Origin: a virus
Lineage: Duplodnaviria; Caudoviricetes
DNA: 43,552 nt
Reading direction: 5' to 3' (one strand)
IMG/VR virus record: IMGVR_UViG_3300028585_000008
Coordinates: 1-43,552 of that record
Under the pieces are notes generated by a model, which searched no databases, was not told where the DNA came from, and saw nothing but the letters and a program-made list of their open reading frames with translations. Below are positions 13,470 through 36,483 of this stretch, one piece after another; position 1 is the first letter of the stretch; each line of letters opens with the position of its first letter. The translations under genes were made by a program, and so were the position numbers.

Positions 13470-13960
13470 TGGTCCTCGTCGCGCTCCCTTCCGGCCCGCT
13501 CAAGCGCGACCTGATCCAGCTTGCCTATGAGGAATGCGGGCAGGCCGGCTATGAGTTCGAGCTGACGCCGGAGGAATACGAAAGTGCGCTACGCTGGCTG
13601 AATGCGATGCTGTCGGAATGGCTCGACGCATTTGGCGTGGATCTCGGGTATGATTTCCCGGTGTCCGGCAAAGGCCATATCGACGATGCGAGCGGCGTTC
13701 CTGTCGGCACACAGCAGATCATAGGCCTACGTCTCGCGCTGCGGATCGCGCCCGCAATCGGCAAGGCGCTGAGTACCGAGAGCCGCAAGCAGATGGCGGA
13801 ATCGTGGTCTGCGTTGCGAACCAAGTACCAGACGACGCCAACGATGCAGTTCGGCCGCAATACCATGCGCGGCGCCGGCAACCGCTCCTTCTGGTCCACC
13901 CGAAGCCCATTCTTTCCTGTCGATGAGGGCTATGTCCCCGCAATTGAGGATCTTTCCTGA
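13469..13960 (+). CDS. Head completion / packaged-DNA stabilisation protein (P22 gp4-like)
   Basis: FELTPEEYESALRWLNAMLSEW...LGYDFP, LALRIAP and MRGAGN motifs. Confidence 0.85.
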   Translation: MVLVALPSGPLKRDLIQLAYEECGQAGYEFELTPEEYESALRWLNAMLSEWLDAFGVDLGYDFPVSGKGHIDDASGVPVGTQQIIGLRLALRIAPAIGKALSTESRKQMAESWSALRTKYQTTPTMQFGRNTMRGAGNRSFWSTRSPFFPVDEGYVPAIEDLS

Positions 13961-15723
13961 TGCCGGTTCGCCTTCTTCGTCCGTATCTGAGCCAAGCTAT
14001 CAATACGCTGTTCTGGGGTTCGGAGGATGCCTATGACACGTTACGCGCGACTGGTGGGGCAGATGACAACATCGACCGGGCATCCGACTATGCACCGCTG
14101 ACCCGTATTGTCACTAGCGCTGCAGCGAACACCTCGCGCAACGCCACGACTTACAAGATGAACTCGCTCGCTCCTCAGGTACTGACACTCAACACGTCTG
14201 GGTACTGGCCAACTGGCGGGGCCATTACGGTTGCCGCGCTCGGCGCGGGCAGCGTGACTGTCACCCCGGCTAGCGGCGTCACGATCAATGGCGACGTGCA
14301 GCCTGTCACTATCGCTGCGCAAAACAGCGAAGGCCGTCTGCTGAAGACCGGGCAGGACACGTGGGTCACGCTGGATGGGTTCACCGGGCAGATTGCGGCT
14401 GCGAATGCTGCGGCGGGCGGCGATCCGCTGGCTCGTGCATCCTCTAGAAACGGCAGGGCAACCCTGGCAGTGATCGGCGATAGCCGGGTCGCGCAAGGTA
14501 TTCAAATTATCGCCCAAAACGGCGGCATCAATAAGAAGAAGAAGCCGACGAGTTTCGCCGCTTGGTGGGAGTTCCTGAGTCGCGGGCGTATCTCAGCGCC
14601 ATCAGATTACAATTTCGGGGTTTCAGGTTCGCTCATTACCGCGTTGGCAGCACAGGTGCAGCAGGTGCTTGCGCTCAACCCACGGCCCACGCATTGCCTG
14701 ATCCTTTCGGGTACCAATTCCTTCGCCGCGAATGTGACGGCCGCAGATGGCTGGGCGCAATATGCGCCAAACATACAGGCACTTGTGGCGGCGGGTATCC
14801 GCCCGATCTGCCTCGCAGATTTGCCGAGGGCGATCGGAAGCTGGACGGCAAGCGCCGCTGCTCAATCAATTCAATTCAACCAGCTTCTTTTTCGCAATGC
14901 GCCCGCACTTGGCGCTCTCGTGGTGGACCCTGCATATCTTCTAGCGGATCCAGCTAATACGGCTGGCGATCCACTGACCGGCTATTATCAAAACAACGGG
15001 GTCACCGATAACGGAATCCACCCCGCGACGCTTGCCGACTTCCTGATCGGTCAAGCAGTCGATGGCGTTGTTAGCCCGCTCATCCAAGGGCCGCTACCCT
15101 TCGTGAGCAGCCGGGCAGACGTATACGACGCGACCAACAATCCTTTCGGGAATATCTTGGAAAGCGTCATGTCGGGTTCGTCTCTTATGCAAGGGACTGC
15201 CGGCACGAACACCACCAATGGCGGTACGGCATCGGGCACCGTAGCAAGTGGGTGGAACAACCGCACGCTGACAGGAACCGGGACATCCGTTGCCTCGATC
15301 GAAGCGCGGGCAGATGGGAAGCCCGGCAATAACCAGGTGCTTACCCTATCAAGCGCATCGGGCGTTTCGACGTATCGCTTTTCGTTTATCACCAACCCGC
15401 TGGCAGCGAGTTATTATGTGGCGGGCGACAAGCTGCAACTTGCGATTGATATGAGTGTTTCGGCGGCTACGGGCCTCGAAGGCCTGTACTTCTATGTGCA
15501 GGATTTCGACGGCACAAACCCACGCGGCGCCGGGCAGTGGGGCGATAATGCCATAATCGGCAGCAATTACTACCCGTACCCCACGGCATTCTCTGGCCGC
15601 GCTTTCACTGACCCGGCAATCATTGTCGCAAGTCCACTTAGTCTCATAATTCGCATGGAGATGCGGGTTAACAACGGCGGGGCTACGATCAAGATTGGCG
15701 GCGCAGAGTTGCGGCGGGTGTGA
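13960..15723 (+). CDS. Tail/virion appendage protein with SGNH/GDSL hydrolase domain
   Basis: Block I VIGDS, block II NFGVSG, block III LSGTN, block V DNGIHP; beta-rich C-terminal domain. Confidence 0.75.
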   Translation: MPVRLLRPYLSQAINTLFWGSEDAYDTLRATGGADDNIDRASDYAPLTRIVTSAAANTSRNATTYKMNSLAPQVLTLNTSGYWPTGGAITVAALGAGSVTVTPASGVTINGDVQPVTIAAQNSEGRLLKTGQDTWVTLDGFTGQIAAANAAAGGDPLARASSRNGRATLAVIGDSRVAQGIQIIAQNGGINKKKKPTSFAAWWEFLSRGRISAPSDYNFGVSGSLITALAAQVQQVLALNPRPTHCLILSGTNSFAANVTAADGWAQYAPNIQALVAAGIRPICLADLPRAIGSWTASAAAQSIQFNQLLFRNAPALGALVVDPAYLLADPANTAGDPLTGYYQNNGVTDNGIHPATLADFLIGQAVDGVVSPLIQGPLPFVSSRADVYDATNNPFGNILESVMSGSSLMQGTAGTNTTNGGTASGTVASGWNNRTLTGTGTSVASIEARADGKPGNNQVLTLSSASGVSTYRFSFITNPLAASYYVAGDKLQLAIDMSVSAATGLEGLYFYVQDFDGTNPRGAGQWGDNAIIGSNYYPYPTAFSGRAFTDPAIIVASPLSLIIRMEMRVNNGGATIKIGGAELRRV

Positions 15724-23244: not shown

Positions 23245-24000
23245 ATGACGAAGCTCGCCAACAACATCCCGGTATTCTACGACGGCCGCGGCGTTCCGCT
23301 GACGGGTGGCTATGTCTCCGTGGGCGCGGCAAATGGCGATCCTGAGAACGCACCGATCAACGTCTATTGGGACGAAGGTTTCACCGTTCGGGCAACGCAG
23401 CCGCTGCGCACGATCGGCGGCATGATCGTCAACGGCGTAACGCCTGCATCGGTGTTTTTCACGCAGCAGGATTATTCGGTTCGGGTGACGGACGCGAATG
23501 GCGTTCTCGTCGCCTACTCGCCTTCGGTCTATTCGGATGCCGACAGCTTCCAGACCAAGAATGATACGCTGACCGAGATAGCGGGCCAAGGGGCGACCGA
23601 TTTCGGTTTGGCCCTGCTCCTGCTGCGCGACCAGGCTGCGCTCCAGGCGGCTGTCGCTTCGTTGCCCGGCTTCACCAAAACCACGGATTTCAGCAGCGGC
23701 GTGACGGCTTCCGGATCATGGGAGCAGCGGCCTGACGGTGCCGGTGGGTACATCATCACGCAACGCGGGTTCGGCGTTCAGGATAGCACAGGCGGCACCA
23801 AAACGATCACGTTCCCGGTTCCCTTCACGGACGCATCCTCGATCGTAGCTGTGGCAAGCAACGCCTCGGGCGGTGTGCCGGCCGCGTTTCACGGCACCGG
23901 TAGCTACACGGAGACGACGATGGTGGTTGGTTCCAGCCTCGCCAACGGGTCGGCGGCGGGATCGGGCACGACATTCACCTGGCAAGCGACGGGACGCTAG
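23245..24000 (+). CDS. Tail fibre / spike adaptor protein
   Basis: N-terminal head-binding-like domain (FYDGRGVPLTGG, INVYWD, QPLRTIGG); C-terminal fibre-tip motif (ITQRG, ITFPVPFT, WQATGR). Confidence 0.75.
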   Translation: MTKLANNIPVFYDGRGVPLTGGYVSVGAANGDPENAPINVYWDEGFTVRATQPLRTIGGMIVNGVTPASVFFTQQDYSVRVTDANGVLVAYSPSVYSDADSFQTKNDTLTEIAGQGATDFGLALLLLRDQAALQAAVASLPGFTKTTDFSSGVTASGSWEQRPDGAGGYIITQRGFGVQDSTGGTKTITFPVPFTDASSIVAVASNASGGVPAAFHGTGSYTETTMVVGSSLANGSAAGSGTTFTWQATGR

Positions 24001-24801
24001 ATGGCTCGCTACAGCGACACAATCCGCGACGAGCGCACCTTGGCCCCGGTGGGCGGCGCGCAGGTATTCGTGCGCAATCAGGATGGCTCTACGCCTGTCA
24101 TTACAGCAGATGATGGAACGCCGCTGTTCGCTGCCGTTTCGGATGAATATGGCACGTTCTCGTTCAATGCGGCGCCAAACCTGTACGACCTGACAATCCG
24201 GTACAACGGTCGGGTGATCGGCGAAGAGTTCGGGGTGCCGGTTGGAGCGCCCAGCCTGCCGACCGGTTTCATCGTTGACGCGCTGGGGACCTCGCCTACG
24301 ACCGCGCCTTCGCAGCGGGCAGTCAGCGATGCCGTGACGGGCATCAACGGAACGCTAGCCGGCGTGACGACCGGGATCGCACAGGCGACTTGGAACAATG
24401 TCGGCAATTTCTCCCCCACCCTGACCCTTGGCGGTCTGGACCAAAGCCCCAGCCTCGAAAACGGGCAGATGACCGGCCACCTTGATCTCACGGCCAATCA
24501 GGCATTCATTCAGATTGCCGGCACCGCGCGCGACAAGACGGCACCGGCTGGCGGCTTCGGCGACAATGCTCGGGTCTTGCTCGAAGACCTCCCGTTCACC
24601 GCGAACGGCATCATTCCGCAGTGGTTGAAGCTTGAGCCCGGCAGCGGCTTCCCAGCCGACACGGAAGCCTATCTCGTCGGTGACACGATCGCTTTCTATC
24701 GTCCCGGTCGCGTTCCTGTGACGGCGAATGACCTTGCCGACAATTACTATATCCGCGTGACGGGAACCGTCGCCATCCTACCCCCCGAGGAAACCGCATG
24801 A
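24001..24801 (+). CDS. Putative tail fibre protein
   Basis: SDEYGTFSFNA N-terminal domain, LGTSPTTAPSQRAV fibre motif, LEDLPFTA C-terminal domain. Confidence 0.65.
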   Translation: MARYSDTIRDERTLAPVGGAQVFVRNQDGSTPVITADDGTPLFAAVSDEYGTFSFNAAPNLYDLTIRYNGRVIGEEFGVPVGAPSLPTGFIVDALGTSPTTAPSQRAVSDAVTGINGTLAGVTTGIAQATWNNVGNFSPTLTLGGLDQSPSLENGQMTGHLDLTANQAFIQIAGTARDKTAPAGGFGDNARVLLEDLPFTANGIIPQWLKLEPGSGFPADTEAYLVGDTIAFYRPGRVPVTANDLADNYYIRVTGTVAILPPEETA

Positions 24802-27059
24802 TCCGCTATCTCTTGGCGCTTCTTGCGCTCGCCCTCGCCACGCCCGCAGTCGCCGGCCCGTCGCTGGACCCGACGACGCACCCGTATATCGCGCTGGTAT
24901 CGACCAGCAAGGCGGTGTTCCGCGTCGGCGAGACCGGGAATGTGGTCATCACCCTGCGCAATGCAGGCGGGGCAACCTTCACCGGCAACGCGATCACCAC
25001 GATTTACCTCAACACGGCGATCGTCGGGCAGACCACCACGCCGGTCAGCATCGCGTCGGGCGGCTCGCCGGTCTATTCCGCGCCGTTCACGATCACCAAC
25101 GCTGGCGACCGTGGCTACCACATCGACGTGACCGTGCGGGATAGCGGCAATGCCATCGCAGACGCGGCGCCTGGCGCGATTGATGTGGAGGCATCGACCT
25201 TCTCGGCTGGATTCCCGCGCCAGTGCTGGATCGGCAAGTGGGATACCTCGATCAACGCGGCGACACTGCTCGACAGCCAGGTCGCGTGGCACTGCAACAC
25301 CGTGCAGGGCTATGCCAACTACTACCGCCCTGAACTTGCGCCGCCTCCGGGTCTCGCAACATGGCCCTCGCTCTCCAACCTGACGGTCAGCCGCGCGACG
25401 ATCACCAACGTCATCACGGCAGCGCATGCCCGCTCGATGCCGGTGCTGTTCTTCCAGGCGACGGGCGAGGCGTACAACACGTGGACCGCGCAGGCCGTGA
25501 AGCCCAAGCTCGCATGGGGGTCGTTCAACTCGGCATGCGGCAAGACGCTGGCGGGTTGCACCGAGGCGAACATGAACCGTTCGCCCGATGCTCCGGACAA
25601 TTGGACGCAATACGGCTGGCAGGCGGATCACCTCGACTTCTTCGATCCCTGCAATGCGGGCTGGCAGCAGTTCCTCATCGCCAACTCGATCCGCCCCATG
25701 CTCGCGCAGTTCCCGTTCGATGGCTGGCAGGCGGACACCGTGGGTGCGCCGTCCACGAATGGTGGCATCACCTATGACGTGAAGGGTAACCCGATCGACA
25801 CGAAGGCGTGTCTCGGCGACTTCACGACGGGTGCAGCGGCGCGGATCGGCAAGCCGGTCATCGTCAACAACGTCTCTGGCTGGGGGCTGGTCGATACCGC
25901 GTTCGCTGGTGCGCAGCCGTACCTCTACCGCGAGACGTGGAACTTCGACACGCAGTTCTACCCGGGCCTGAACGCACTGGTGGCAGGGTCCGCGTTCGGC
26001 GTGCGGCGCTACACCACGCGCCCGGTCGTCCAGCCCGCCTACATGCAGCGCAACCTTGCCGATCGCTGCACATCGGGTCAGCAAACGACGGGTTGCACGC
26101 TCAACGGCAACTCGCCCCTGCTCGCGACCGCCATGTTTGCCATCTCCGGCTCCACGCTGATGAACCACGCCGATGACGGCTGCGTGCAGACCAACGTGTT
26201 CGTGGAAGGCCAGCACCTGCCCTGCACGGCGGCGGTGATGAACAACATCCTGTCCTACAAGGCGTTCGAGGTCAGCTATCAGCACATGCTCCGCGACGCC
26301 GTTACCGACAGCACGGAAGCCTGCCTCATCACGGCCGGTGCGACCGGCAGCGGCACGGGTTCGGCGGGCCAGGTCTACGTGCTCGGCAAGAACAAGGCGG
26401 GCTTCCAGATCTGCCACCTGCTCAACCTGACGGGCGTGTCGTCAAACGACTGGACCGACCTCGAAGGCACCAAGGAGAAGCCGACGTCGCTCTCGAGCCT
26501 CACGCTCAAGATGTATTATTACGGCAATACGGTAGACCCGGCTGTCAACAAGCTGTGGTGGGCCACCCCGGACACGGCCAACGGTGCGGCCCGCACGCTC
26601 ACCTATACGACCGGCTCGGATGGCGCAGGCCGGTTCGTGACGTTCACGGTGCCGTCGCTGTCGTATTGGGACATGATCGCGCTTGAAACGAGCGCGGGCG
26701 CAAACCTGACGATCGACGGACGCCAGCCGGTGCGGGGCAACTGGTACTCGGTCGCGTCGGCGGGCATCTCGTCGGCAGGCACCTACGTCTCCGCAGCCTG
26801 TTGCAAGCGCTATGCGGGCTATCGCTCGATCCAGATCGGCGCGGCGTCCTCAACGGTCAACCTGATCTACAGCGCGGCCAAGACGGCATCGGTAACGCTG
26901 CACCTGGACGCACCAGATGGCGCGGTTCTCGGCGCCTGCTCGCTGCCGGCCGGAACCAGCCTCACGCAGGCCTGTGGGGTGCCTCCGGTCAGCGGGATGC
27001 ACGACCTGTATATCGAGTTCAATCAGCCGCTTAGCCTATTCGGCTTTTACTTTAGCTGA
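24798..27059 (+). CDS. Secreted glycoside hydrolase family 66 (dextranase-like) with C-terminal CBM6-like domain
   Basis: Signal peptide MIRYLLALLALALATPAVA; GH66 motifs AIDV...FPR, DPCNAGWQQFL, FDGWQADTVG (nucleophile Asp), VNNV, YLYRETW (acid/base Glu), PAYM, HLLNLTG, VPSLSYWDM; C-terminal LHLDAPDG...SGMHDLYIEF. Confidence 0.85.
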   Translation: MIRYLLALLALALATPAVAGPSLDPTTHPYIALVSTSKAVFRVGETGNVVITLRNAGGATFTGNAITTIYLNTAIVGQTTTPVSIASGGSPVYSAPFTITNAGDRGYHIDVTVRDSGNAIADAAPGAIDVEASTFSAGFPRQCWIGKWDTSINAATLLDSQVAWHCNTVQGYANYYRPELAPPPGLATWPSLSNLTVSRATITNVITAAHARSMPVLFFQATGEAYNTWTAQAVKPKLAWGSFNSACGKTLAGCTEANMNRSPDAPDNWTQYGWQADHLDFFDPCNAGWQQFLIANSIRPMLAQFPFDGWQADTVGAPSTNGGITYDVKGNPIDTKACLGDFTTGAAARIGKPVIVNNVSGWGLVDTAFAGAQPYLYRETWNFDTQFYPGLNALVAGSAFGVRRYTTRPVVQPAYMQRNLADRCTSGQQTTGCTLNGNSPLLATAMFAISGSTLMNHADDGCVQTNVFVEGQHLPCTAAVMNNILSYKAFEVSYQHMLRDAVTDSTEACLITAGATGSGTGSAGQVYVLGKNKAGFQICHLLNLTGVSSNDWTDLEGTKEKPTSLSSLTLKMYYYGNTVDPAVNKLWWATPDTANGAARTLTYTTGSDGAGRFVTFTVPSLSYWDMIALETSAGANLTIDGRQPVRGNWYSVASAGISSAGTYVSAACCKRYAGYRSIQIGAASSTVNLIYSAAKTASVTLHLDAPDGAVLGACSLPAGTSLTQACGVPPVSGMHDLYIEFNQPLSLFGFYFS

Positions 27060-27085: not shown

Positions 27086-27196
27086 ATGATTAAACCGATG
27101 CGACGTGATGGGGAAGGTAGCGGCGGAATCCCCACCAGCCCGCCCCCGACCGGCCCGCTGAACCCGAAGCCCAAGCCCACCCCGCCGGCGAGCTGA
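27086..27196 (+). CDS. 36-aa Pro/Gly-rich peptide (MIKPMRRDGEGSGGIPTSPPPTGPLNPKPKPTPPAS), below ORF-track cutoff
   Basis: AAGGA RBS at 27074-27078; TGATG stop/start coupling to the next gene. Confidence 0.65.
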   Translation: MIKPMRRDGEGSGGIPTSPPPTGPLNPKPKPTPPAS

Positions 27197-27651
27197 TGGA
27201 TCTGTTGCCAGCCTTGTTCGGGGTCGCCTGCTGCCTGACTGTTGCGCTGGCACGTGGAGGCATGCGCCTTCTACTGTCGGTGTTGCTGGCGGAATCGTGG
27301 GCGATCTCGAATATAGGCTGGCAGTGGAACATGCTATCGTTGTTCCCGGTGCTGGATCTCGTGACCGCCTGCGTCGGGTTCGCGATGTGGCATGAGACCA
27401 AGGCCCGGTGGCTTGGCGTGTTCACGTGCATCGCTGCCAGCCAGCTTGTCTTGCATGCTATCTATGAATGGGCCGGGTTCGGTTTCCAGCACGCCTATTT
27501 GTTTCTGCTCAATGCGACCTTCGCGCTAGAGCTTTTGGTCGTATCGTGGAGGGGGATGGTGGATGCTTTCGACGCTAATGTTCGCGGCGTTCGTCGTTTT
27601 CTGGCCCGAGGTATGGGCGTTCATCCGGCGGAAGCGGTGATCCGTGGATGA
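27196..27651 (+). CDS. Multi-pass (about 5 TM) membrane protein
   Basis: Five hydrophobic segments containing polar residues (E, D, Q, H, N). Confidence 0.75.
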   Translation: MDLLPALFGVACCLTVALARGGMRLLLSVLLAESWAISNIGWQWNMLSLFPVLDLVTACVGFAMWHETKARWLGVFTCIAASQLVLHAIYEWAGFGFQHAYLFLLNATFALELLVVSWRGMVDAFDANVRGVRRFLARGMGVHPAEAVIRG

Positions 27652-28054
27652 GCTGGCGCAGATCATGTCGAAGGGCTGGACGCCCGGCGCGGTCGGCATC
27701 TGGGGCGGTCTCGCAATGGTGCTGGTCGGCTTCGGTGGCCGCGCCGTGCTGAAATGGATCAACGGTATTCCAGAGCGGCGCCGCGCTGTGAACGAAAGCC
27801 TGAGCGCCGAAGAGACCATCACCGACTCGGTATACAAAAGGATGGATGCTGAGATGACCCGGCTTGGCAAGCGCATCGAGAGTCTTGAGCAGCGTGTAGC
27901 CGAGTTAGAAGCCGAGAACCGCGGCATCATCAAGGAACGCGATAGCGCGCTGGCTGAAGTCGCGCGACTGGAAGCGGTCAACCTCGGGCGCGGCGAGTTC
28001 AAAAACGAGTTGCAGGTTCTGCAATCCGCCAAACGAATATCGGGGGCAGCATGA
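27644..28054 (+). CDS. Membrane-anchored coiled-coil protein (holin/antiholin candidate)
   Basis: One N-terminal TM plus coiled coil; immediately upstream of the endolysin. Confidence 0.6.
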   Translation: MDELAQIMSKGWTPGAVGIWGGLAMVLVGFGGRAVLKWINGIPERRRAVNESLSAEETITDSVYKRMDAEMTRLGKRIESLEQRVAELEAENRGIIKERDSALAEVARLEAVNLGRGEFKNELQVLQSAKRISGAA

Positions 28055-28641
28055 ATGCACAGTTTTTCGACCGCGCCCGCAAAGGACGCCTGCTAGGCCC
28101 GACCCTCACGCAGAGCGAGGTTGACGGGTGCACGGCTATCCTCGTTGCGCTGGAAGGCTTGCCGCTGGCTCACATCGCATACGGCCTAGCAACCGCTTAC
28201 CACGAGACGGCGCACACGATGCTGCCGATCAAGGAGAACGGTGGCCCAGCCTACTTCTTCCGCATGTACGACCCGCACGGCAACCGGCCTGATGTTGCGC
28301 GCCGGCTCGGCAACACGGAGCCCGGCGATGGCTGCCGTTATGCGGGCCGTGGCTATGTGCAGTTGACAGGCCGCGCCAACTACCAGCGCGCACAGGATGC
28401 ACTGGGGCAACCGCTGGTGAGCAATCCCGACCTCGCGATGGATCCGACCATCGCCGCTAAGGTGATGCGCCAAGGCATGAAAGCGGGATGGTTCACCGGT
28501 AAGACGTTCGCGTCATATTTGCCCGCGACCGGCGCTGCCACGATGGCGCAGTTCATGTCGGCGCGACGGATCATCAACGGGGCAGATCGCTGCGCGGATA
28601 TCGCCGCCTATGCTGCCGAGTTTCAGGACTATTTGGCATGA
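28051..28641 (+). CDS. Endolysin, GH19 (chitinase/lysozyme-like)
   Basis: LATAYHET, YAGRGYVQLTGRANY, NPDLA and ARRIING motifs. Confidence 0.9.
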   Translation: MNAQFFDRARKGRLLGPTLTQSEVDGCTAILVALEGLPLAHIAYGLATAYHETAHTMLPIKENGGPAYFFRMYDPHGNRPDVARRLGNTEPGDGCRYAGRGYVQLTGRANYQRAQDALGQPLVSNPDLAMDPTIAAKVMRQGMKAGWFTGKTFASYLPATGAATMAQFMSARRIINGADRCADIAAYAAEFQDYLA

Positions 28642-28919
28642 CAGACACCCGCCTCAACTCGCTGCTAGAGGTCGGTACGCTCGCCCTGATCGGCCTGTTC
28701 TCCGCTGTCCTCGCCGGCCTGTCGATCCGCAAGGGCGATGCCAGCGGCGCGGCTGCATGGTCCGCGATCCTGATGGCGATCATCAACACGATCAAGGAAA
28801 GCCGCTCAAGCCGCACGATTGATCGGATGGGGCAGCAGCTTGCCGCAGCTTCGCCACCTAGCGATGGGCCGGCCGGCACGCCAAGCGATCCCGTGGCTGT
28901 GAAGGAGGTAACGCCGTGA
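28638..28919 (+). CDS. Holin candidate (2 TM)
   Basis: Two hydrophobic helices and a charged C-terminal tail; between endolysin and spanins. Confidence 0.6.
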   Translation: MTDTRLNSLLEVGTLALIGLFSAVLAGLSIRKGDASGAAAWSAILMAIINTIKESRSSRTIDRMGQQLAAASPPSDGPAGTPSDPVAVKEVTP

Positions 28920-29416
28920 CAATCCTATGGCTGCTCTCAAACTGGCGCTGGCTCCTAGGCGCCATAGCAACCGCCACCCTAGCCATCCTCCTCACCACCA
29001 CCACGATCGACCGCGACCAGTGGCGCGCTACGGCTCGCAAGGCAGACGCGACGATCGCCAAGTTCACCGTCGCGCAAGATACCGCACAAAAGGCTGCACA
29101 AGCCGCCCACGACGCTCAGGAACAACGCTATAAGGATCTCGCCAATGCTGCCGACAAGGATCATGCCGCTGCGCTCGCTGATGCTGGGACTGCCACTGAT
29201 CGTTGGATCGCTGCTCACCGGGTGCCAGTCTGCCCCGCTAGTCGTGCAGCCGGCGGTTCCGTTGCCGGCACCTCGGGTAGCGGTGCCGAAAGTCCTGTCC
29301 GATCCGATCCGGCGCCCGGGATGGTTGCCGTCTCGCCCGAGTCCATCCACATCTGCACCGACAACACGCTGAGGCTTGAAGCGGCGCAGGATTGGGCGGT
29401 GGGGCTTAATCAGTAG
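28916..29416 (+). CDS. Inner-membrane spanin (Rz-like)
   Basis: N-terminal TM, Ala-rich coiled coil, last gene of the lysis cassette. Confidence 0.75.
   Translation: MTILWLLSNWRWLLGAIATATLAILLTTTTIDRDQWRATARKADATIAKFTVAQDTAQKAAQAAHDAQEQRYKDLANAADKDHAAALADAGTATDRWIAAHRVPVCPASRAAGGSVAGTSGSGAESPVRSDPAPGMVAVSPESIHICTDNTLRLEAAQDWAVGLNQ
29145..29372 (+). CDS. Outer-membrane spanin lipoprotein (Rz1-like), embedded in Rz
   Basis: +1 frame inside Rz, lipobox LLTGC (Cys codon 29223), Pro-rich mature part. Confidence 0.7.
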   Translation: MLPTRIMPLRSLMLGLPLIVGSLLTGCQSAPLVVQPAVPLPAPRVAVPKVLSDPIRRPGWLPSRPSPSTSAPTTR

Positions 29417-33258: not shown

Positions 33259-33676
33259 ACGGGCCTTTGTGGTTTTGGGTGGGGGTGCTGGCGCGGAGGG
33301 CGCGTAGACCTGCCGGCATGTAGCGAGCGCGGCGAAGCGCGGCGCGAACGGCTGGCGTGTTCGGAATCGCCGGCCCCGCATTGCCGTCGATGCGGCCGGG
33401 CTCAGGTGAGACAGCGAACCTTTCGACGATCTCACACGGCACCGGGAAGCGATCGAACGCAGGCGCAGTGCCGTACCGATGCTTATGGTAGTAGCCAGGG
33501 TTCGCGTCGATCCGATCTCGGCTGTATTTGCCAGCCCACGGCAGCGGATAGGCGTATCCGGCATCCTCCGGGCGCCATAGCGTGATGTACCGATTGCGCC
33601 GGAACTCAGACCGTACGTCCACGATGTAGAACACCCGCGCCTCTTGCCCCGCCAGCGCCTCCAACTCGGGGGTCAT
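33248..33676 (-). CDS. Hypothetical protein (MTPELEALAG...)
   Basis: YITLWRPEDAGY...AGKYS aromatic core; ATGA coupling to the MTase. Confidence 0.65.
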   Translation of the reverse strand: MTPELEALAGQEARVFYIVDVRSEFRRNRYITLWRPEDAGYAYPLPWAGKYSRDRIDANPGYYHKHRYGTAPAFDRFPVPCEIVERFAVSPEPGRIDGNAGPAIPNTPAVRAALRRARYMPAGLRALRASTPTQNHKGPYDE

Positions 33677-34464
33677 GCTGCGATCCTTTCGCCGGTACCG
33701 AGCCGGGAAGCCGCAACAGCCATGCAATCAACCCGCTCGCCTTTGAACAGTTCGGTGTATTCGTTCTTTTCGATTCCGATGAACCGCCGTTGCTCGCGTT
33801 GAGCTGCAACAAGGAAGCTGCCGCTACCAAAAGCGTTATCCAGAACGAGATCACCGGGATTTGAATATGTGCGGATCAGGTATTGCCCCAGCCCGACCGG
33901 CTTCTGGGTAGAGTGCCAAACCGTTCGCTCCGGTTCGCTCTCTGCGGTCTTGAAGTAGACCACATCCGTAGGGTAGCGGCCTCCTTCGCTCCTCACATGG
34001 GATGCGGAAAAGTCACCGTAAGATCCGGTCTGCTGATCTTTCCGGACACCTTTGTCGTAGGCTGCACCCTCGCCCATTTGCGGGTTATAGGTAGGCTTTC
34101 CTGGGTAAAAAACGCACACATCCTCATGCTTCCGAAGCGGTTGCTTTTTGGCATTGAGGAAATTGGTCGCCTTCGACTTCTCCCAAACCAGCTTGTACCG
34201 GAACCAGTCTTCGTTGGAGAGGATCAGCCGAGCGGTAAATGCGCCTTGCGATGTCAGCACGATCGCGCCGGAAGGTTTGAGCAGGCGGCGGTATTCCGAC
34301 CATAGCCCCGGCAGGTCAATAACGCTGTCCCAGCGATTCTGCGTCGTGCCGTAGGGTAGGTCGCATAGGATGAGATCGACGCTGCTGCTTGGCAACGCAG
34401 GCATAACGGCTAGGCAATCGCCCTCGTAGAGCACGCCGCCTGCCACTTCCACCCGCCCGCTCAC
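33673..34464 (-). CDS. Orphan N6-adenine/N4-cytosine DNA methyltransferase (beta class)
   Basis: GDCL, catalytic motif IV DLPY, HSTQKP and SAM-binding LDNAFGSGS; GTG start coupled to upstream stop. Confidence 0.9.
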   Translation of the reverse strand: MSGRVEVAGGVLYEGDCLAVMPALPSSSVDLILCDLPYGTTQNRWDSVIDLPGLWSEYRRLLKPSGAIVLTSQGAFTARLILSNEDWFRYKLVWEKSKATNFLNAKKQPLRKHEDVCVFYPGKPTYNPQMGEGAAYDKGVRKDQQTGSYGDFSASHVRSEGGRYPTDVVYFKTAESEPERTVWHSTQKPVGLGQYLIRTYSNPGDLVLDNAFGSGSFLVAAQREQRRFIGIEKNEYTELFKGERVDCMAVAASRLGTGERIAA

Positions 34465-34646
34465 GACAGCGATCCAGCGAGAGGGGTGGAAACCACACGC
34501 CCAGCCATCCCCGGTGCCACTCCGGTGCAAAGTGCGTCGATACGCCCTTTGTTCTGTGCCCGTTCCCCGCAACCCACGGCGATAGGTGACGTATTCCTGC
34601 GCCTTACAGATGCAGGCCTTTCCCTCCGAAGGCAGGGGATGGTCAT
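34461..34646 (-). CDS. Hypothetical protein
   Basis: Bridges HNH and MTase with ATGA/GTGA overlaps; composition atypical. Confidence 0.35.
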   Translation of the reverse strand: MTIPCLRRERPASVRRRNTSPIAVGCGERAQNKGRIDALCTGVAPGMAGRVVSTPLAGSLS

Positions 34647-35212
34647 GCTGGCACCTGAGTGGTGCAGAGGCGGGCTGCATTGCGCTTCGGTGTTCCTGGC
34701 GTAGGAACCCAGCCGAGAGCAGACGATTGCGCGCGCCACATCTTTCCGGTGCGGATTTTACTCACCATAGAATGACCGATCGGCAGGCCTTGCGCGCACT
34801 GGCTGTTATCCCAGCCGCGTTGCAGACGTTCGACAACCTTAGCTAAGCCTTCTTCGGACAGCTTAGCATGGCCATTTTCCGCGCCTGATTGGCTTGCAGG
34901 GCCAGCCCATCTACCGCGTTCTTTCTTATCCTGCATGTTGTCGCCATGTGTTCCCCAGCGAAGGTGGTTGGGGTTGCAGCAAGGCGGGTTATCGCAAGAA
35001 TGCAGAGCGAAAAGCCCGATCGGGTCTTTGCCCGTCGCCAACTTCAGCGCGTATCGCGAGGCAGATCCTTTTCGGCCATACCGACCATAGCCGCCACGGG
35101 CGGTTTTCCCCTGCCAGAGCCAGCAATCATCCGCTCCGCGCACGCAAACTGTAGCCCAGAACGCCGAGTCGGCTTTGGGGTAGCTATCCGTGACTATTCC
35201 GTAGCCTGTCAT
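34643..35212 (-). CDS. HNH endonuclease with C-terminal DNA-binding domain
   Basis: DCWLWQG, GYG, ALHSCDNPPCCNPNHLRWGTHGDN, GAENGHAKL and VSKIRTGKMW motifs; GGAG RBS before ATG 35212. Confidence 0.85.
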   Translation of the reverse strand: MTGYGIVTDSYPKADSAFWATVCVRGADDCWLWQGKTARGGYGRYGRKGSASRYALKLATGKDPIGLFALHSCDNPPCCNPNHLRWGTHGDNMQDKKERGRWAGPASQSGAENGHAKLSEEGLAKVVERLQRGWDNSQCAQGLPIGHSMVSKIRTGKMWRAQSSALGWVPTPGTPKRNAARLCTTQVPA

Positions 35213-35276
35213 TCCGATTTGCTCCGATCGTGTCCGGTATGTTCCGGTTCGATGGATCTCGAATGACGCTTGGCCG

Positions 35277-35303
35277 AAAATATCCCGTGTAATCACAAGA
35301 TAT
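35277..35303 (-). terminator. Rho-independent terminator directly after the tRNA fragment
   Basis: Minus strand AUAUCUUGUG-AUUA-CACGGGAUAU hairpin (2 G-U pairs) followed by UUU. Confidence 0.6.
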
Positions 35304-35352
35304 TGGTCGGGGAGACAGGATTTGAACCTGCGACATCCTGCTCCCAAAGCAG
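35304..35352 (-). mobile_element. attP: attP core: 3' half of tRNA-Pro(TGG)
   Basis: Minus strand CTGCTTTGGGAGCAGGATGTCGCAGGTTCAAATCCTGTCTCCCCGACCA = anticodon arm (TGG), T-arm GTTCAAATC, acceptor 3' strand and CCA; abuts the integrase stop; no 5' half present. Confidence 0.9.
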
Positions 35353-36483
35353 TCATTCTATACCACCGTTTTCCGCAGTTTTTGTAGCAGTTGCGCTATC
35401 CTCTGACAATAGCGCTCCGTGATTATTCCGTGACTCCGTGTCAGCCATGATTGCGCGCAAATCGTCCTCCAGGACGTGCGCGTAACGGGATGTGGTCGCG
35501 ATATCGGTGTGACCAAGCAGCTTCTGAGCCGCCTTGAGGTTCCCGCTTGCGCGAACGATCCGGGTGGCGCTGGTATGCCGCAGGTCGTGGAAGCGAAAAT
35601 CGCTGATGCCGGCTTCCTTGAGGGCCGCGCTCCACTGGCGCTTCCAGCCCTCGGCACTGAACGGATAGCGGATACCCTTGCGCCGTGCTGGTCGGTCTGG
35701 TCGCGCCGGCGCCGGCCGCTGGCACTTGTAGGTGAAGACGAACGGGCAATCATCCAGACGCGGCCGACTCATGATGATCTCGACCATGCGGGCTGTCAGC
35801 GGGAAGACATGCCAGACGTTGCCCTTGGTATGAACGCGTGCCCTCGCTGCTGCGAGATCAACCTCGTCCCACTTCAAGCCGATCACCGCGCCGCGCCGCT
35901 GACCCGACAGGATCGCGAATTCGACCACTGCGCCAAGGTCATCTCCTAGGTGGGAAAGCAGATTGCGTTGATCGTCGGTGGACAGCTCGCGCACGCGCTC
36001 CCGCGGTTCGGCAAGCTTGAGATCCTTCCACTTGATCGCGCCGTCTGTATCGGGCTGCGGCACATCGAAGCCGCCAAGCCGAGCGTGCTTCATCACGCGC
36101 TGCAACAGGGCGATCTCTCGGTTCACGCTGGCGGGTGATACCGTCGCCCGGCGCTTGGCTACGAACGCGCGCATATCGGCCTGTTTGATGTCGTTGATGA
36201 ACTTGAGCCGGCCGATGATCGAGCAGAGATTGTCGAGCTGGTATTCCGTCGTGCCGGCGTTGTTCTCGTGCTGCCCCTTGTCGTTCCAGTACGACAGGCA
36301 GGCTGCATCGAGCGTGATGCCGGGCTTCGTGTCGTCGCCTAGCGCGACCTGGCGCTTGAGGTTGGCTTCGAAGACTTCTGCGTCTCGCTTTTTCGTGCAG
36401 CCCGTAGAGCCATGAAACCGCTGCTTGTTCCTCTGGAAATCGTACTGCCAGTAGGGCGAGCGCGGGTCTTTACGGATGGACAT
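35353..36483 (-). CDS. int: Tyrosine integrase
   Basis: SGQR (R), HTKG (K), FHDLRH (H-x-x-R), LLGH and SRY (catalytic Tyr). Confidence 0.95.
   Translation of the reverse strand: MSIRKDPRSPYWQYDFQRNKQRFHGSTGCTKKRDAEVFEANLKRQVALGDDTKPGITLDAACLSYWNDKGQHENNAGTTEYQLDNLCSIIGRLKFINDIKQADMRAFVAKRRATVSPASVNREIALLQRVMKHARLGGFDVPQPDTDGAIKWKDLKLAEPRERVRELSTDDQRNLLSHLGDDLGAVVEFAILSGQRRGAVIGLKWDEVDLAAARARVHTKGNVWHVFPLTARMVEIIMSRPRLDDCPFVFTYKCQRPAPARPDRPARRKGIRYPFSAEGWKRQWSAALKEAGISDFRFHDLRHTSATRIVRASGNLKAAQKLLGHTDIATTSRYAHVLEDDLRAIMADTESRNNHGALLSEDSATATKTAENGGIE

Follow-up and report, generated by a model that had tools for sequence, protein, structure and literature searches.

A putative two-part phage tailspike: a GH66-family enzyme with an export leader and its non-catalytic partner stub

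On the accepted view, the particles of tailed phages reach completion within the cytoplasm, and their receptor-binding proteins are accordingly leaderless and mostly free of disulfides. In single-chain tailspike depolymerases such as Dettilon gp208 (PDB: 6F7K) and P22 gp9, the virion anchor, the catalytic part and the C-terminal head lie within one leaderless trimeric chain. A second protein docks on the fibre trimer in the case of the T-even gp38 adhesin and the Tfa proteins of P2 and Mu, but these are cytoplasmic and are not known to be glycanases. The pIII protein of filamentous phages is a Sec-exported, disulfide-bonded receptor-binding protein, but these phages assemble at the membrane without lysis. 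Our search of the openly accessible literature found neither a Sec-exported enzyme that docks on a tailed-phage fibre nor a characterised phage GH66 enzyme.

The GH66 endo-dextranases of T. pseudethanolicus (PDB: 5AXG, 5AXH), F. johnsoniae (PDB: 8IU8), B. thetaiotaomicron (BT3087) and S. mutans (PDB: 3VMN) have the fold, the Asp/Glu pair, the Tyr and Asn of the -1 subsite and an export leader in common with the phage enzyme described here, at 23% structural identity. The phage enzyme differs from them in being a late gene with a dedicated partner, in the changed Asp, His and Tyr of its -2 subsite, and in having 12 Cys in its core, compared with 3-6 in the aligned canonical enzymes. CITases and CI4Tases (PDB: 3WNK, 5X7G; Agreia CI4Tase) have the same barrel and catalytic pair, but carry a CBM35 inside the barrel; Pfam matching and alignment found no such insert in the phage enzyme, whose extra domain is C-terminal.

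Phage GH66 genes are already annotated. CU5_16/CU5_17 of Lactobacillus phage phiPYB5 (annotated dextranase), whose lengths are those of the top two BFVD structural matches, also place GH66 in a phage tail module, but the protein, in which the YD motif is intact, is leaderless, fused behind a GH25 domain and spread across two ORFs, and belongs to a phage of a Gram-positive host. It is cited as a predicted phage dextranase in PMC5380687. PhiAX1_450 of Acetobacter phage phiAX1 (annotated CITase) is a GH66 protein that begins with a signal-like leader and is encoded in the structural operon of a temperate, P22-like phage of an alphaproteobacterium; its YD motif is changed, as in our enzyme, and it has 7 Cys. 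It is 29% identical to our enzyme, lacks the CBM-like domain and follows a gp4-like slot, where the preceding gene encodes a leader-bearing protein and not the stub described below; the main text of the paper describing phiAX1 does not mention it. Two gut 'phage' records, MT835882 and MT835837, also gave matches; the first is a SusC/SusD/GH66/GH31 locus and was rejected as a phage GH66. The annotated genes of phiPYB5 and phiAX1, and the partner stub, had been missed in the first reading of the sequence.

The window, by which we mean the whole stretch of 43,552 nucleotides analysed, is a complete, P22-like, temperate phage with integrase and repressor-like genes. Each of two runs yields the stretch as a single contig of 43.45 kb, with 0 differences, so it is no assembly artefact; either run is a possible source of the window. 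The features relevant to this study are as follows.

23245..24000, + strand: short fibre with a P22-type head-binding anchor and a gp53-like tip, directly 5' of the stub
24001..24801, + strand: leaderless tailspike stub (P0029), 266 aa, no Cys, translationally coupled to the enzyme gene
24001..24276, + strand: virion anchor of the stub, residues 1-92 (37% identity to the N-terminus of a fibre from prophage G293)
24391..24789, + strand: head domain of the stub (tailspike C-terminal/fibre-head fold), residues 131-263, predicted docking platform
24798..27059, + strand: GH66-family glycoside hydrolase with predicted export (P0001), 753 aa (PF13199, fold model, sequence)
24798..24854, + strand: Sec-type leader (residues 1-19) with its predicted cleavage site behind AVA (sequence, hand-made scan, conservation in relatives)
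24903..26678, + strand: residues 36-627 with 12 Cys, forming the GH66 core of Ig-like domain, barrel and C-terminal sandwich (PF13199 and Foldseek)
25314..25316, + strand: Ala173, at the position where characterised GH66 enzymes bind O3/O4 of the -2 glucose with an Asp (alignment)
25734..25736, + strand: Asp313, nucleophile position, aligned with D312G of 5AXH (27/27 rows)
25932..25934, + strand: Glu379, acid/base position, by alignment to the acid/base Glu (27/27 rows)
26697..27056, + strand: CBM6-like jelly-roll, residues 634-753, part of the predicted docking face (Pfam, PDB match, complex model)
27196..29416, + strand: lysis module downstream, with a GH19 endolysin (28051-28641) and membrane ORFs that are holin- or spanin-like by appearance only, having no family match

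The GH66 assignment proposed in the initial annotation, whose six quoted motifs are all present in ORF 24798-27059 (+), was borne out by profile and by structure. Residues 36-627 match PF13199 in one stretch covering 1-545 of the 546 model positions (E 2.3e-69; 234.9 bits, cut-off 23.7). The AlphaFold model (pLDDT 88) has the GH66 three-domain layout of an Ig-like N domain, a (beta/alpha)8 barrel and a C-terminal sandwich; among the Foldseek matches listed, the 17 best are all GH66, and 5AXG superimposes with TM 0.90 and rmsd 3.1. The beta-helix of classical tailspike depolymerases is absent, as the enzyme has a barrel fold, and PHROGs holds no family for either the enzyme or the stub.

The catalytic motifs that had been read from the sequence are in register with GH66, as D313 falls on the position that is changed in 5AXH, the D312G nucleophile mutant, and E379 on that of the acid/base Glu. 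In the clade alignment D313, E379 and N357 are kept in 27/27 rows and Y172 in 26/26, and an invariant set specific to the clade surrounds the catalytic residues. The suspected loss of the QxYD Asp was also confirmed: Ala stands at position 173 in 21 of 26 clade rows and Asp in 5. The glucose-binding Asp, His and Tyr of the -2 subsite correspond to A173, P178/E179 and F219, which favours the altered specificity suggested earlier and makes the proposed digestion of a plain alpha-1,6-glucan matrix doubtful; the enzyme scores 164.2 bits against a cut-off of 730 with the NCBIfam endo-dextranase equivalog NF052487. Plain dextran is probably not the substrate, given the changed -2 subsite and the location of one relative within a capsule-export operon of a host. 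We would give very little credence to a docked enzyme that either serves as a sugar-binding tip with little or no cutting, or acts as a plain dextranase. The three altered glucose-holding residues and the Asp kept in five stub-linked relatives would speak for such a reading, but the invariance of D313, E379, N357 and Y172 and of the clade-specific residues around them suggests that catalysis is under selection, with a substrate that is new. This GH66 clade, whose -2 subsite is altered, is likely to represent a new specificity.

The leader has Arg at position 3, AVA at 17-19 and no acidic residue among the first 20, and its best 9-residue hydrophobicity (3.13) was the highest among the 25 late ORFs covered by our hand-made scan. 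The same features are found in the 7 closest stub-linked relatives scanned, which supports the Sec-type export signal predicted by the initial annotation. Its remark on disulfide richness also stands on sequence grounds: the enzyme has 16 Cys, against an expectation of 2.2 based on the 14 Cys among the 4762 aa of 11 other structural ORFs (Poisson p 2e-9), and in the clade alignment 10 Cys are invariant and the pairs 509/539 and 668/669 are each lost together. It could be argued that the hydrophobic N-terminus is instead an uncleaved docking peptide or anchor with which the enzyme joins the virion in the cytoplasm, in the way that the RcGTA head fibre docks via hydrophobic residues 2-10 according to PMC7296036. 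We consider this very improbable, because an AxA motif follows the hydrophobic stretch in all close relatives, chromosomal relatives without a stub have a leader of the same kind, the Cys are numerous and lost in pairs, and the complex model described below docks an enzyme lacking residues 1-21. The RcGTA fibre had also been considered as a secreted precedent and was dropped, as residues 2-10 are found in the particle (PMC7296036).

The stub consists of a tail anchor and a head domain with no catalytic middle, so that anchor and catalytic domain are divided between two genes. Its head domain superimposes on residues 658-798 of 6F7K (Z 11.8, rmsd 2.9, 122 aligned), a placement of the fold that comes from VIA-align alone: Foldseek gave nothing at E 0.001, a PDB sequence profile search gave chance matches, tblastn against 50,697 phage records gave no match, and matches in the ESM Atlas were unnamed viral clusters. 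A longer, fused form of the head domain was not seen among 624 candidates, in what is a weak test. In related sphingomonad prophages, the slot holds one long protein where the window has a short stub and a separate enzyme: in G293 a leaderless esterase fibre of 858 aa that has the anchor of the stub, and in G067 a beta-helix tailspike. The single-chain tailspikes share with the pair the gene slot and the same likely job, and with the stub the anchor and C-terminal head, but here the catalytic part would be a separate, exported barrel enzyme.

The stub head domain lies directly 5' of the enzyme in all four phage loci with DNA, namely the window, L006 (42%), L002 (30%) and L007 (a contig-edge fragment, E 5e-4). 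It is retained on anchors that are unrelated to each other (P22 head-binding, T7-like tail N-terminus, carboxypeptidase-regulatory-like and unassigned). In L002 and L007 the pair sits among head genes. The head domain is found 5' of the enzyme in 0/3 chromosomal loci with upstream DNA (L003, L004 and L009), and is missing altogether from two whole enzyme-bearing bacterial genomes (G001 and G002); a search of 401 genomes from the same family as G001 with the stub profile turned up a single weak match at positions 19-138, outside the head domain, which was not counted. As an indirect sign of linkage, 6 of 8 stub matches, self included, have a longest contig equal in size to that of a clade enzyme. 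The other two have no matched enzyme, one of them being on a contig too short for both genes.

Chromosomal relatives bear on the possible target. In Novosphingobium, kpsM- and kpsE-like genes precede a 58% relative on a single strand; L003 and L008 lie in or beside capsule genes, L003 being the only capsule locus seen whole, and L004 and L009 are not capsule loci. Such neighbours, together with the integrase and repressor-like genes, would fit lysogenic conversion, in which the prophage enzyme, as a host capsule-locus hydrolase would, trims the lysogen's own capsule from the periplasm and alters the receptor or eases export. This seems distinctly unlikely, as the enzyme gene always follows the stub in phage loci and shares its strand with the late operon, to which it is fused by the ATGA overlap noted earlier. 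This overlap, which joins the enzyme start to the stop of 24001-24801, is real and recurs in L006. No promoter-like site was found on the + strand 5' of the enzyme, although the promoter and terminator scan performed at chance level and is weak for an alphaproteobacterium.

Modelled with two stub copies and the enzyme minus residues 1-21, the enzyme-stub complex scored 0.66, while the best of 3 controls scored 0.00. The mark used for this score is reached by 116/157 solved pairs and 2/215 mismatched pairs, from a calibration that the present job does not resemble. At least 86% of the contacts are shared between runs, and the partner pLDDT is at least 90. The predicted contacts are made by two stub subunits with the outer barrel helices and the CBM-like domain of the enzyme, and the catalytic residues are outside the contact list. 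Because two stub copies were modelled and not three, the enzyme may occupy the vacant slot of the third subunit. In a post hoc comparison, hydrophobicity at the 35 core contact columns is higher for stub-linked rows than for the CBM-less clade (0/603 shifts as extreme), but this contrast fails against the CBM-bearing chromosomal clade (132/603). Conservation of the contact columns is not clearly higher in stub-linked rows against either clade (72/603 shifts for the CBM-less clade, 302/603 for the CBM-bearing chromosomal one), with 6 of 40 stub-specific columns (p 0.05); as the rows are related, these tests are not independent.

The C-terminal domain is rightly termed CBM6-like, as in the heading of the initial annotation, since its Pfam CBM_6 match (E 5e-6) scores 27.2 bits, below the cut-off of 28.9; its best PDB match is 1GMM (E 5e-5). 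At cleft A, where the usual CBM6 residues are Tyr, Trp and Asn, it has Ala666, a shortened loop and Ser. Having lost the usual cleft residues, the domain may serve for docking.

Three fates had been proposed for the enzyme, and docking on virions after lysis is the best supported, because the stub co-occurs with the enzyme, the pair replaces a tailspike in its slot, and the complex model passes; free release and lysogenic conversion are weaker. In the former, enzyme freed at lysis would strip capsule or matrix from neighbouring cells while the stub, as a fibre in its own right, binds the same capsule as its receptor, and this shared target would explain why the genes travel together. Soluble depolymerases released at lysis are known in phages (PMC5380687), and chromosomal enzymes work without any stub. 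The fold of the stub head is also that of fibre heads and lactococcal receptor-binding heads. We nevertheless find free release unlikely, as the complex passes in the model while its controls stay at 0.00, the coupled translation of stub and enzyme suggests that they are made in matched amounts, and the stub lacks the catalytic part that its slot-mates have. Fibre-head domains are able to bind receptors on their own, which does count against a docking platform, as do the small number of phage loci with DNA, the position of the pair among head genes in two of them and the two stub matches with no matched enzyme.

We therefore prefer, at a probability of roughly two in three, that a depolymerase folded in the periplasm docks on the stub at lysis and that the pair forms a two-part tailspike. 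Stub and enzyme would be expressed late as a coupled pair; the trimeric stub would be assembled onto the tail in the cytoplasm, while the enzyme would be exported by Sec, form its disulfides and fold in the periplasm. Once the inner membrane is breached at lysis, up to three enzymes could join each stub, each predicted by the model to bridge two stub subunits via its outer barrel helices and CBM-like domain. The docked enzyme would then cut the polysaccharide of the host surface by a retaining mechanism. The bond cleaved would be alpha-glucosidic, probably alpha-1,6, and would belong to the substituted capsule of a sphingomonad host and not to plain dextran.

We lean slightly towards a wider view, in which tailed phages are able to complete the structures that recognise the host after leaving the cytoplasm, by means of a swappable two-gene cassette that arms the particle only at lysis. 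The cassette would combine a head-domain stub on any anchor with an enzyme that is exported by Sec, locked by disulfides and shared with the capsule loci of hosts. A sugar-binding module would have been repurposed as a docking face, and a secreted bacterial glycanase could become a tailspike without having to refold for the cytoplasm. The pair offers a concrete two-protein test case of a post-lysis assembly step and would explain how secreted bacterial glycanases could become host-range determinants; such exported enzymes will escape depolymerase predictors that are modelled on beta-helix tailspikes. Trees bearing on the direction of transfer between host and phage, with 10 of 150 listed proteins among the outgroups, gave differing results: the stub-linked rows are basal with distant outgroups, and with closer outgroups the CBM-bearing chromosomal clade is basal and the stub rows have a support of 73.

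Two overlapping genes form the subject of this analysis:

24001..24801 (+): ORF of 266 aa, here called the stub
24798..27059 (+): ORF of 753 aa, here called the enzyme, of the GH66 family

We give a probability of about 0.65 to the reading that their products make up a two-part tailspike, in which the enzyme is exported, docks as predicted on the stub at lysis, and cuts capsule. The initial annotation had described the longer ORF as a GH66 enzyme, and the ORF and every motif quoted for it are present as stated. That the enzyme is a genuine GH66 member is supported by a Pfam match to PF13199 at residues 36-627 (E 2.3e-69) and by its predicted model (pLDDT 88, pTM 0.90), which matches the GH66 structure 5AXG with a TM of 0.90. 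D313 aligns with the position altered in 5AXH, a nucleophile mutant, and the acid/base Glu of GH66 has its counterpart in E379 (PMC13450635). Scoring of 7999 candidates yielded 28 proteins, namely the query, 26 relatives (49-85%) and one at 26%. D313, E379 and N357 are invariant in the 27-row alignment, and Y172 in 26/26.

Agreia CI4Tase binds the -2 glucose through Y161, D162, H167 and Y213, and D162 contacts its O3 and O4 (bioRxiv 10.64898/2026.08.30.748175). The loss of the QxYD Asp noted earlier in the enzyme extends to its close GH66 relatives (the clade), where 21 of 26 rows have Ala at this position; the enzyme's -2 subsite also has His changed to Pro/Glu and the second Tyr to Phe. Since the Asp, His and second Tyr are all replaced, we infer from the alignment that the enzyme is a retaining alpha-glycosidase with a -2 sugar other than plain glucose, and its specificity is likely to be new. 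The C-terminal domain is CBM6-like as had been claimed, although its score lies below the family cut-off, and the usual CBM6 cleft residues Tyr, Trp and Asn are all replaced. With D313 and E379 conserved, a non-cutting tip or a plain dextranase seems to us the least probable of the readings considered. There is no CBM35 insert in the enzyme barrel, so that identity as a CITase was ruled out. A wider set of exported proteins that combine GH66 with a CBM6-like part (P0058-P0078; 29-36% identity, several cysteine-rich) retains the YD motif. A canonical GH66 with YD and His in a sphingomonad genome (G060, L023 7910-9682) adjoins a large receptor-like gene; this is an ordinary dextran-use locus that could serve as a control.

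The signal peptide proposed for the enzyme is supported by its predicted leader (basic at first, then strongly hydrophobic, then AVA); among the 25 ORFs covered by a hand-made scan, no other virion-type ORF carries one of this type. That this N-terminus could instead be an uncleaved docking peptide appears highly improbable beside such leader features. The 16 Cys counted previously compare with 2.2 expected, and 10 are invariant in the alignment. The pairs 509/539 and 668/669 each vanish jointly in the rows losing them, as expected of disulfides, which the paired Cys are predicted to form.

The stub gene overlaps the enzyme start codon by ATGA, and its product has no leader and no Cys. Residues 1-92 share 37% identity with the N-terminus of a leaderless 858-aa esterase tail fibre in the equivalent slot of a sphingomonad prophage (G293), and another such prophage (G067) has a beta-helix tailspike in that slot. 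Residues 131-263 (the head domain) are predicted to form a beta-sandwich (pLDDT 86) that matches Dettilon tailspike gp208 in its C-terminal domain (Z 11.8, rmsd 2.9, 122 aligned); further matches are to fibre heads and to a giant-virus protein (Z 11.2). Because an anchor-like N-terminus is joined to a tailspike-type head fold, the stub looks like a tailspike missing its catalytic middle. At least four N-termini, unrelated to one another, carry the head domain, and two of them are recognised tail anchors.

In all four phage loci for which DNA is available, a head domain gene precedes the enzyme gene: the window, L006, L002 and L007, the last as a contig-edge fragment. No head domain was found near the chromosomal enzyme genes at L003, L004 and L009, nor anywhere in the bacterial genomes G001 (Novosphingobium sp. 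AP12) and G002; L008 has no upstream DNA. A search with the stub gave 8 matches among 401 candidates, and six of the eight (self included) have a longest contig equal in length to that of a clade enzyme, an indirect sign that the two go together; of the others, one is on DNA too short for both genes and one has no matched enzyme. Portal, Mu F and DUF2213 genes are found in L002, a viral record; judged by eye, the DUF2213-type neighbour in L007 is near-identical, and the neighbours in L006 are ejection-like and tailspike-like. In L002 (3799-6956) and L007 (1-2531), the stub-enzyme cassette is surrounded by the head genes of another type of phage (portal, NUDIX-Mu F fusion, DUF2213); the cassette is therefore mobile, and there it may attach to heads.

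Binding of the enzyme to the head domain is supported by a predicted complex of two head-domain copies, short of a full trimer, with the mature enzyme. The score was 0.66, and 0.00 for the best of three controls; the score mark is reached by 116/157 solved complexes and 2/215 mismatched pairs, counts that apply only roughly to a complex of this kind. Contact agreement between runs was at least 86% and partner pLDDT at least 90. The enzyme's predicted contacts map to outer helices of the barrel (285-295, 331-353, 363-372, 400-405) and to the CBM-like domain (654-671, 744), including the degenerate cleft loop by alignment to 1GMM, and D313, E379, Y172 and N357 are not among them. The best contacts of the stub are made by the turn 227-229, whose Gly and Asp are invariant in 9/9 rows. 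In the model, the enzyme may occupy the place of the absent third stub subunit. Structure matches for the enzyme or head domain included no solved complex of GH66 with a fibre head. Alignment checks on the predicted interface were mixed. Post hoc, contact columns in stub-linked rows exceeded those of the CBM-less clade in hydrophobicity (0/603 shifts as extreme), with no such contrast against the CBM-bearing chromosomal clade (132/603), and in stub-linked rows they were not clearly more conserved. Set beside the coupled genes and the predicted complex, export of the enzyme followed by free release at lysis is unlikely.

For the two-part tailspike, we argue that late transcription would yield stub and enzyme in coupled amounts. 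The stub would trimerise and attach to the tail inside the cytoplasm, while the enzyme would be exported, lose its leader and form up to eight disulfides. Breach of the inner membrane would then bring the two together, and the armed particle would cleave the capsule of the next host.

As a complete phage genome, circular and with a terminal repeat of 127 bases, the window encodes P22-type versions of portal, coat, gp4, gp10 and gp7; it also has an integrase and repressor-like genes. The latter genes bring up lysogenic conversion by the enzyme, which, with its gene coupled to the stub, we consider very unlikely. Among 301 genomes of the family to which Novosphingobium sp. AP12 belongs, 2 have prophages matched by the coat protein (53% and 40% identity); these prophages share a common gene order with the window and identity up to 64%. 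As the enzyme's named close relatives are also from sphingomonads (Sphingobium, Novosphingobium, Flavisphingomonas), the host is probably a sphingomonad. Window DNA is present in three metagenome runs, all from leaf litter, two of which may be its own source. At 33673-36483 (-) lie an integrase and, after it, an HNH endonuclease and a DNA methylase. At 27086-27196 (+), a proline-rich ORF of 36 codons has a ribosome-binding-like site and extends into the beginning of the gene for a 151-aa membrane protein, before the lysis genes; the order of small ORF and membrane protein is comparable in G067.

In AP12, a 58% enzyme relative lies downstream, on one strand, of KpsM-like and KpsE-like genes, whose matches score under their cut-offs, and the locus also holds glycosyltransferases, a polysaccharide export protein and an FkbM methyltransferase. 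A putative capsule-synthesis gene adjoins the relative at L008; L004 and L009 are not capsule loci. The clade is rare (2/401 family genomes, with canonical GH66 in one further genome). The substrate would be a substituted capsule of alpha-glucan type, made by some sphingomonads. The AP12 member, CBM-less and closing the kpsM/kpsE-like operon (L003 6671-11848), is a candidate periplasmic capsule-processing hydrolase. The chromosomal loci L004 and L009 have efflux and CLC chloride-channel genes in common, which lie ~3-7 kb ahead of the enzyme gene with differing intervening genes.

In the literature searched, we found phage GH66 genes on record but no characterised phage GH66, and nothing that describes an exported enzyme attaching to the fibre of a tailed phage. 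The GH66 of Lactobacillus phage phiPYB5, a phage whose dextranase is mentioned in PMC5380687, is leaderless, split and fused with GH25 in the tail module, whereas the window enzyme bears a leader. That of phiAX1 (29% identity) is leader-bearing and lies in the structural operon; it is absent from the available portion of the main text of PMC8566455. The gene transfer agent RcGTA was dropped as a precedent on parts of PMC8601537, PMC10218006 and PMC7296036. Enzyme and stub may represent a virion depolymerase variant not previously known, and the assembly route, if shown, would be new for tailed phages.

In phiAX1, a cultured Acetobacter phage, two successive structural-operon genes with signal-like leaders (L001 10954-13848; PhiAX1_440 and PhiAX1_450) encode a fibre-like 321-aa protein and GH66, whose annotated start omits the leader; here the export of virion parts could be tested. 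MT835882 (L026), which GenBank labels a bacteriophage, is a SusC/SusD/SusE/GH66/GH31 dextran-utilisation locus. The window carries at 13960-15723 (+), between gp4 and gp10, a leaderless GDSL/SGNH esterase-like protein of 587 aa, in the slot that holds GH66 in phiAX1. It is missing from that slot in G067 and G293, and could be a candidate virion capsule deacetylase acting alongside GH66.
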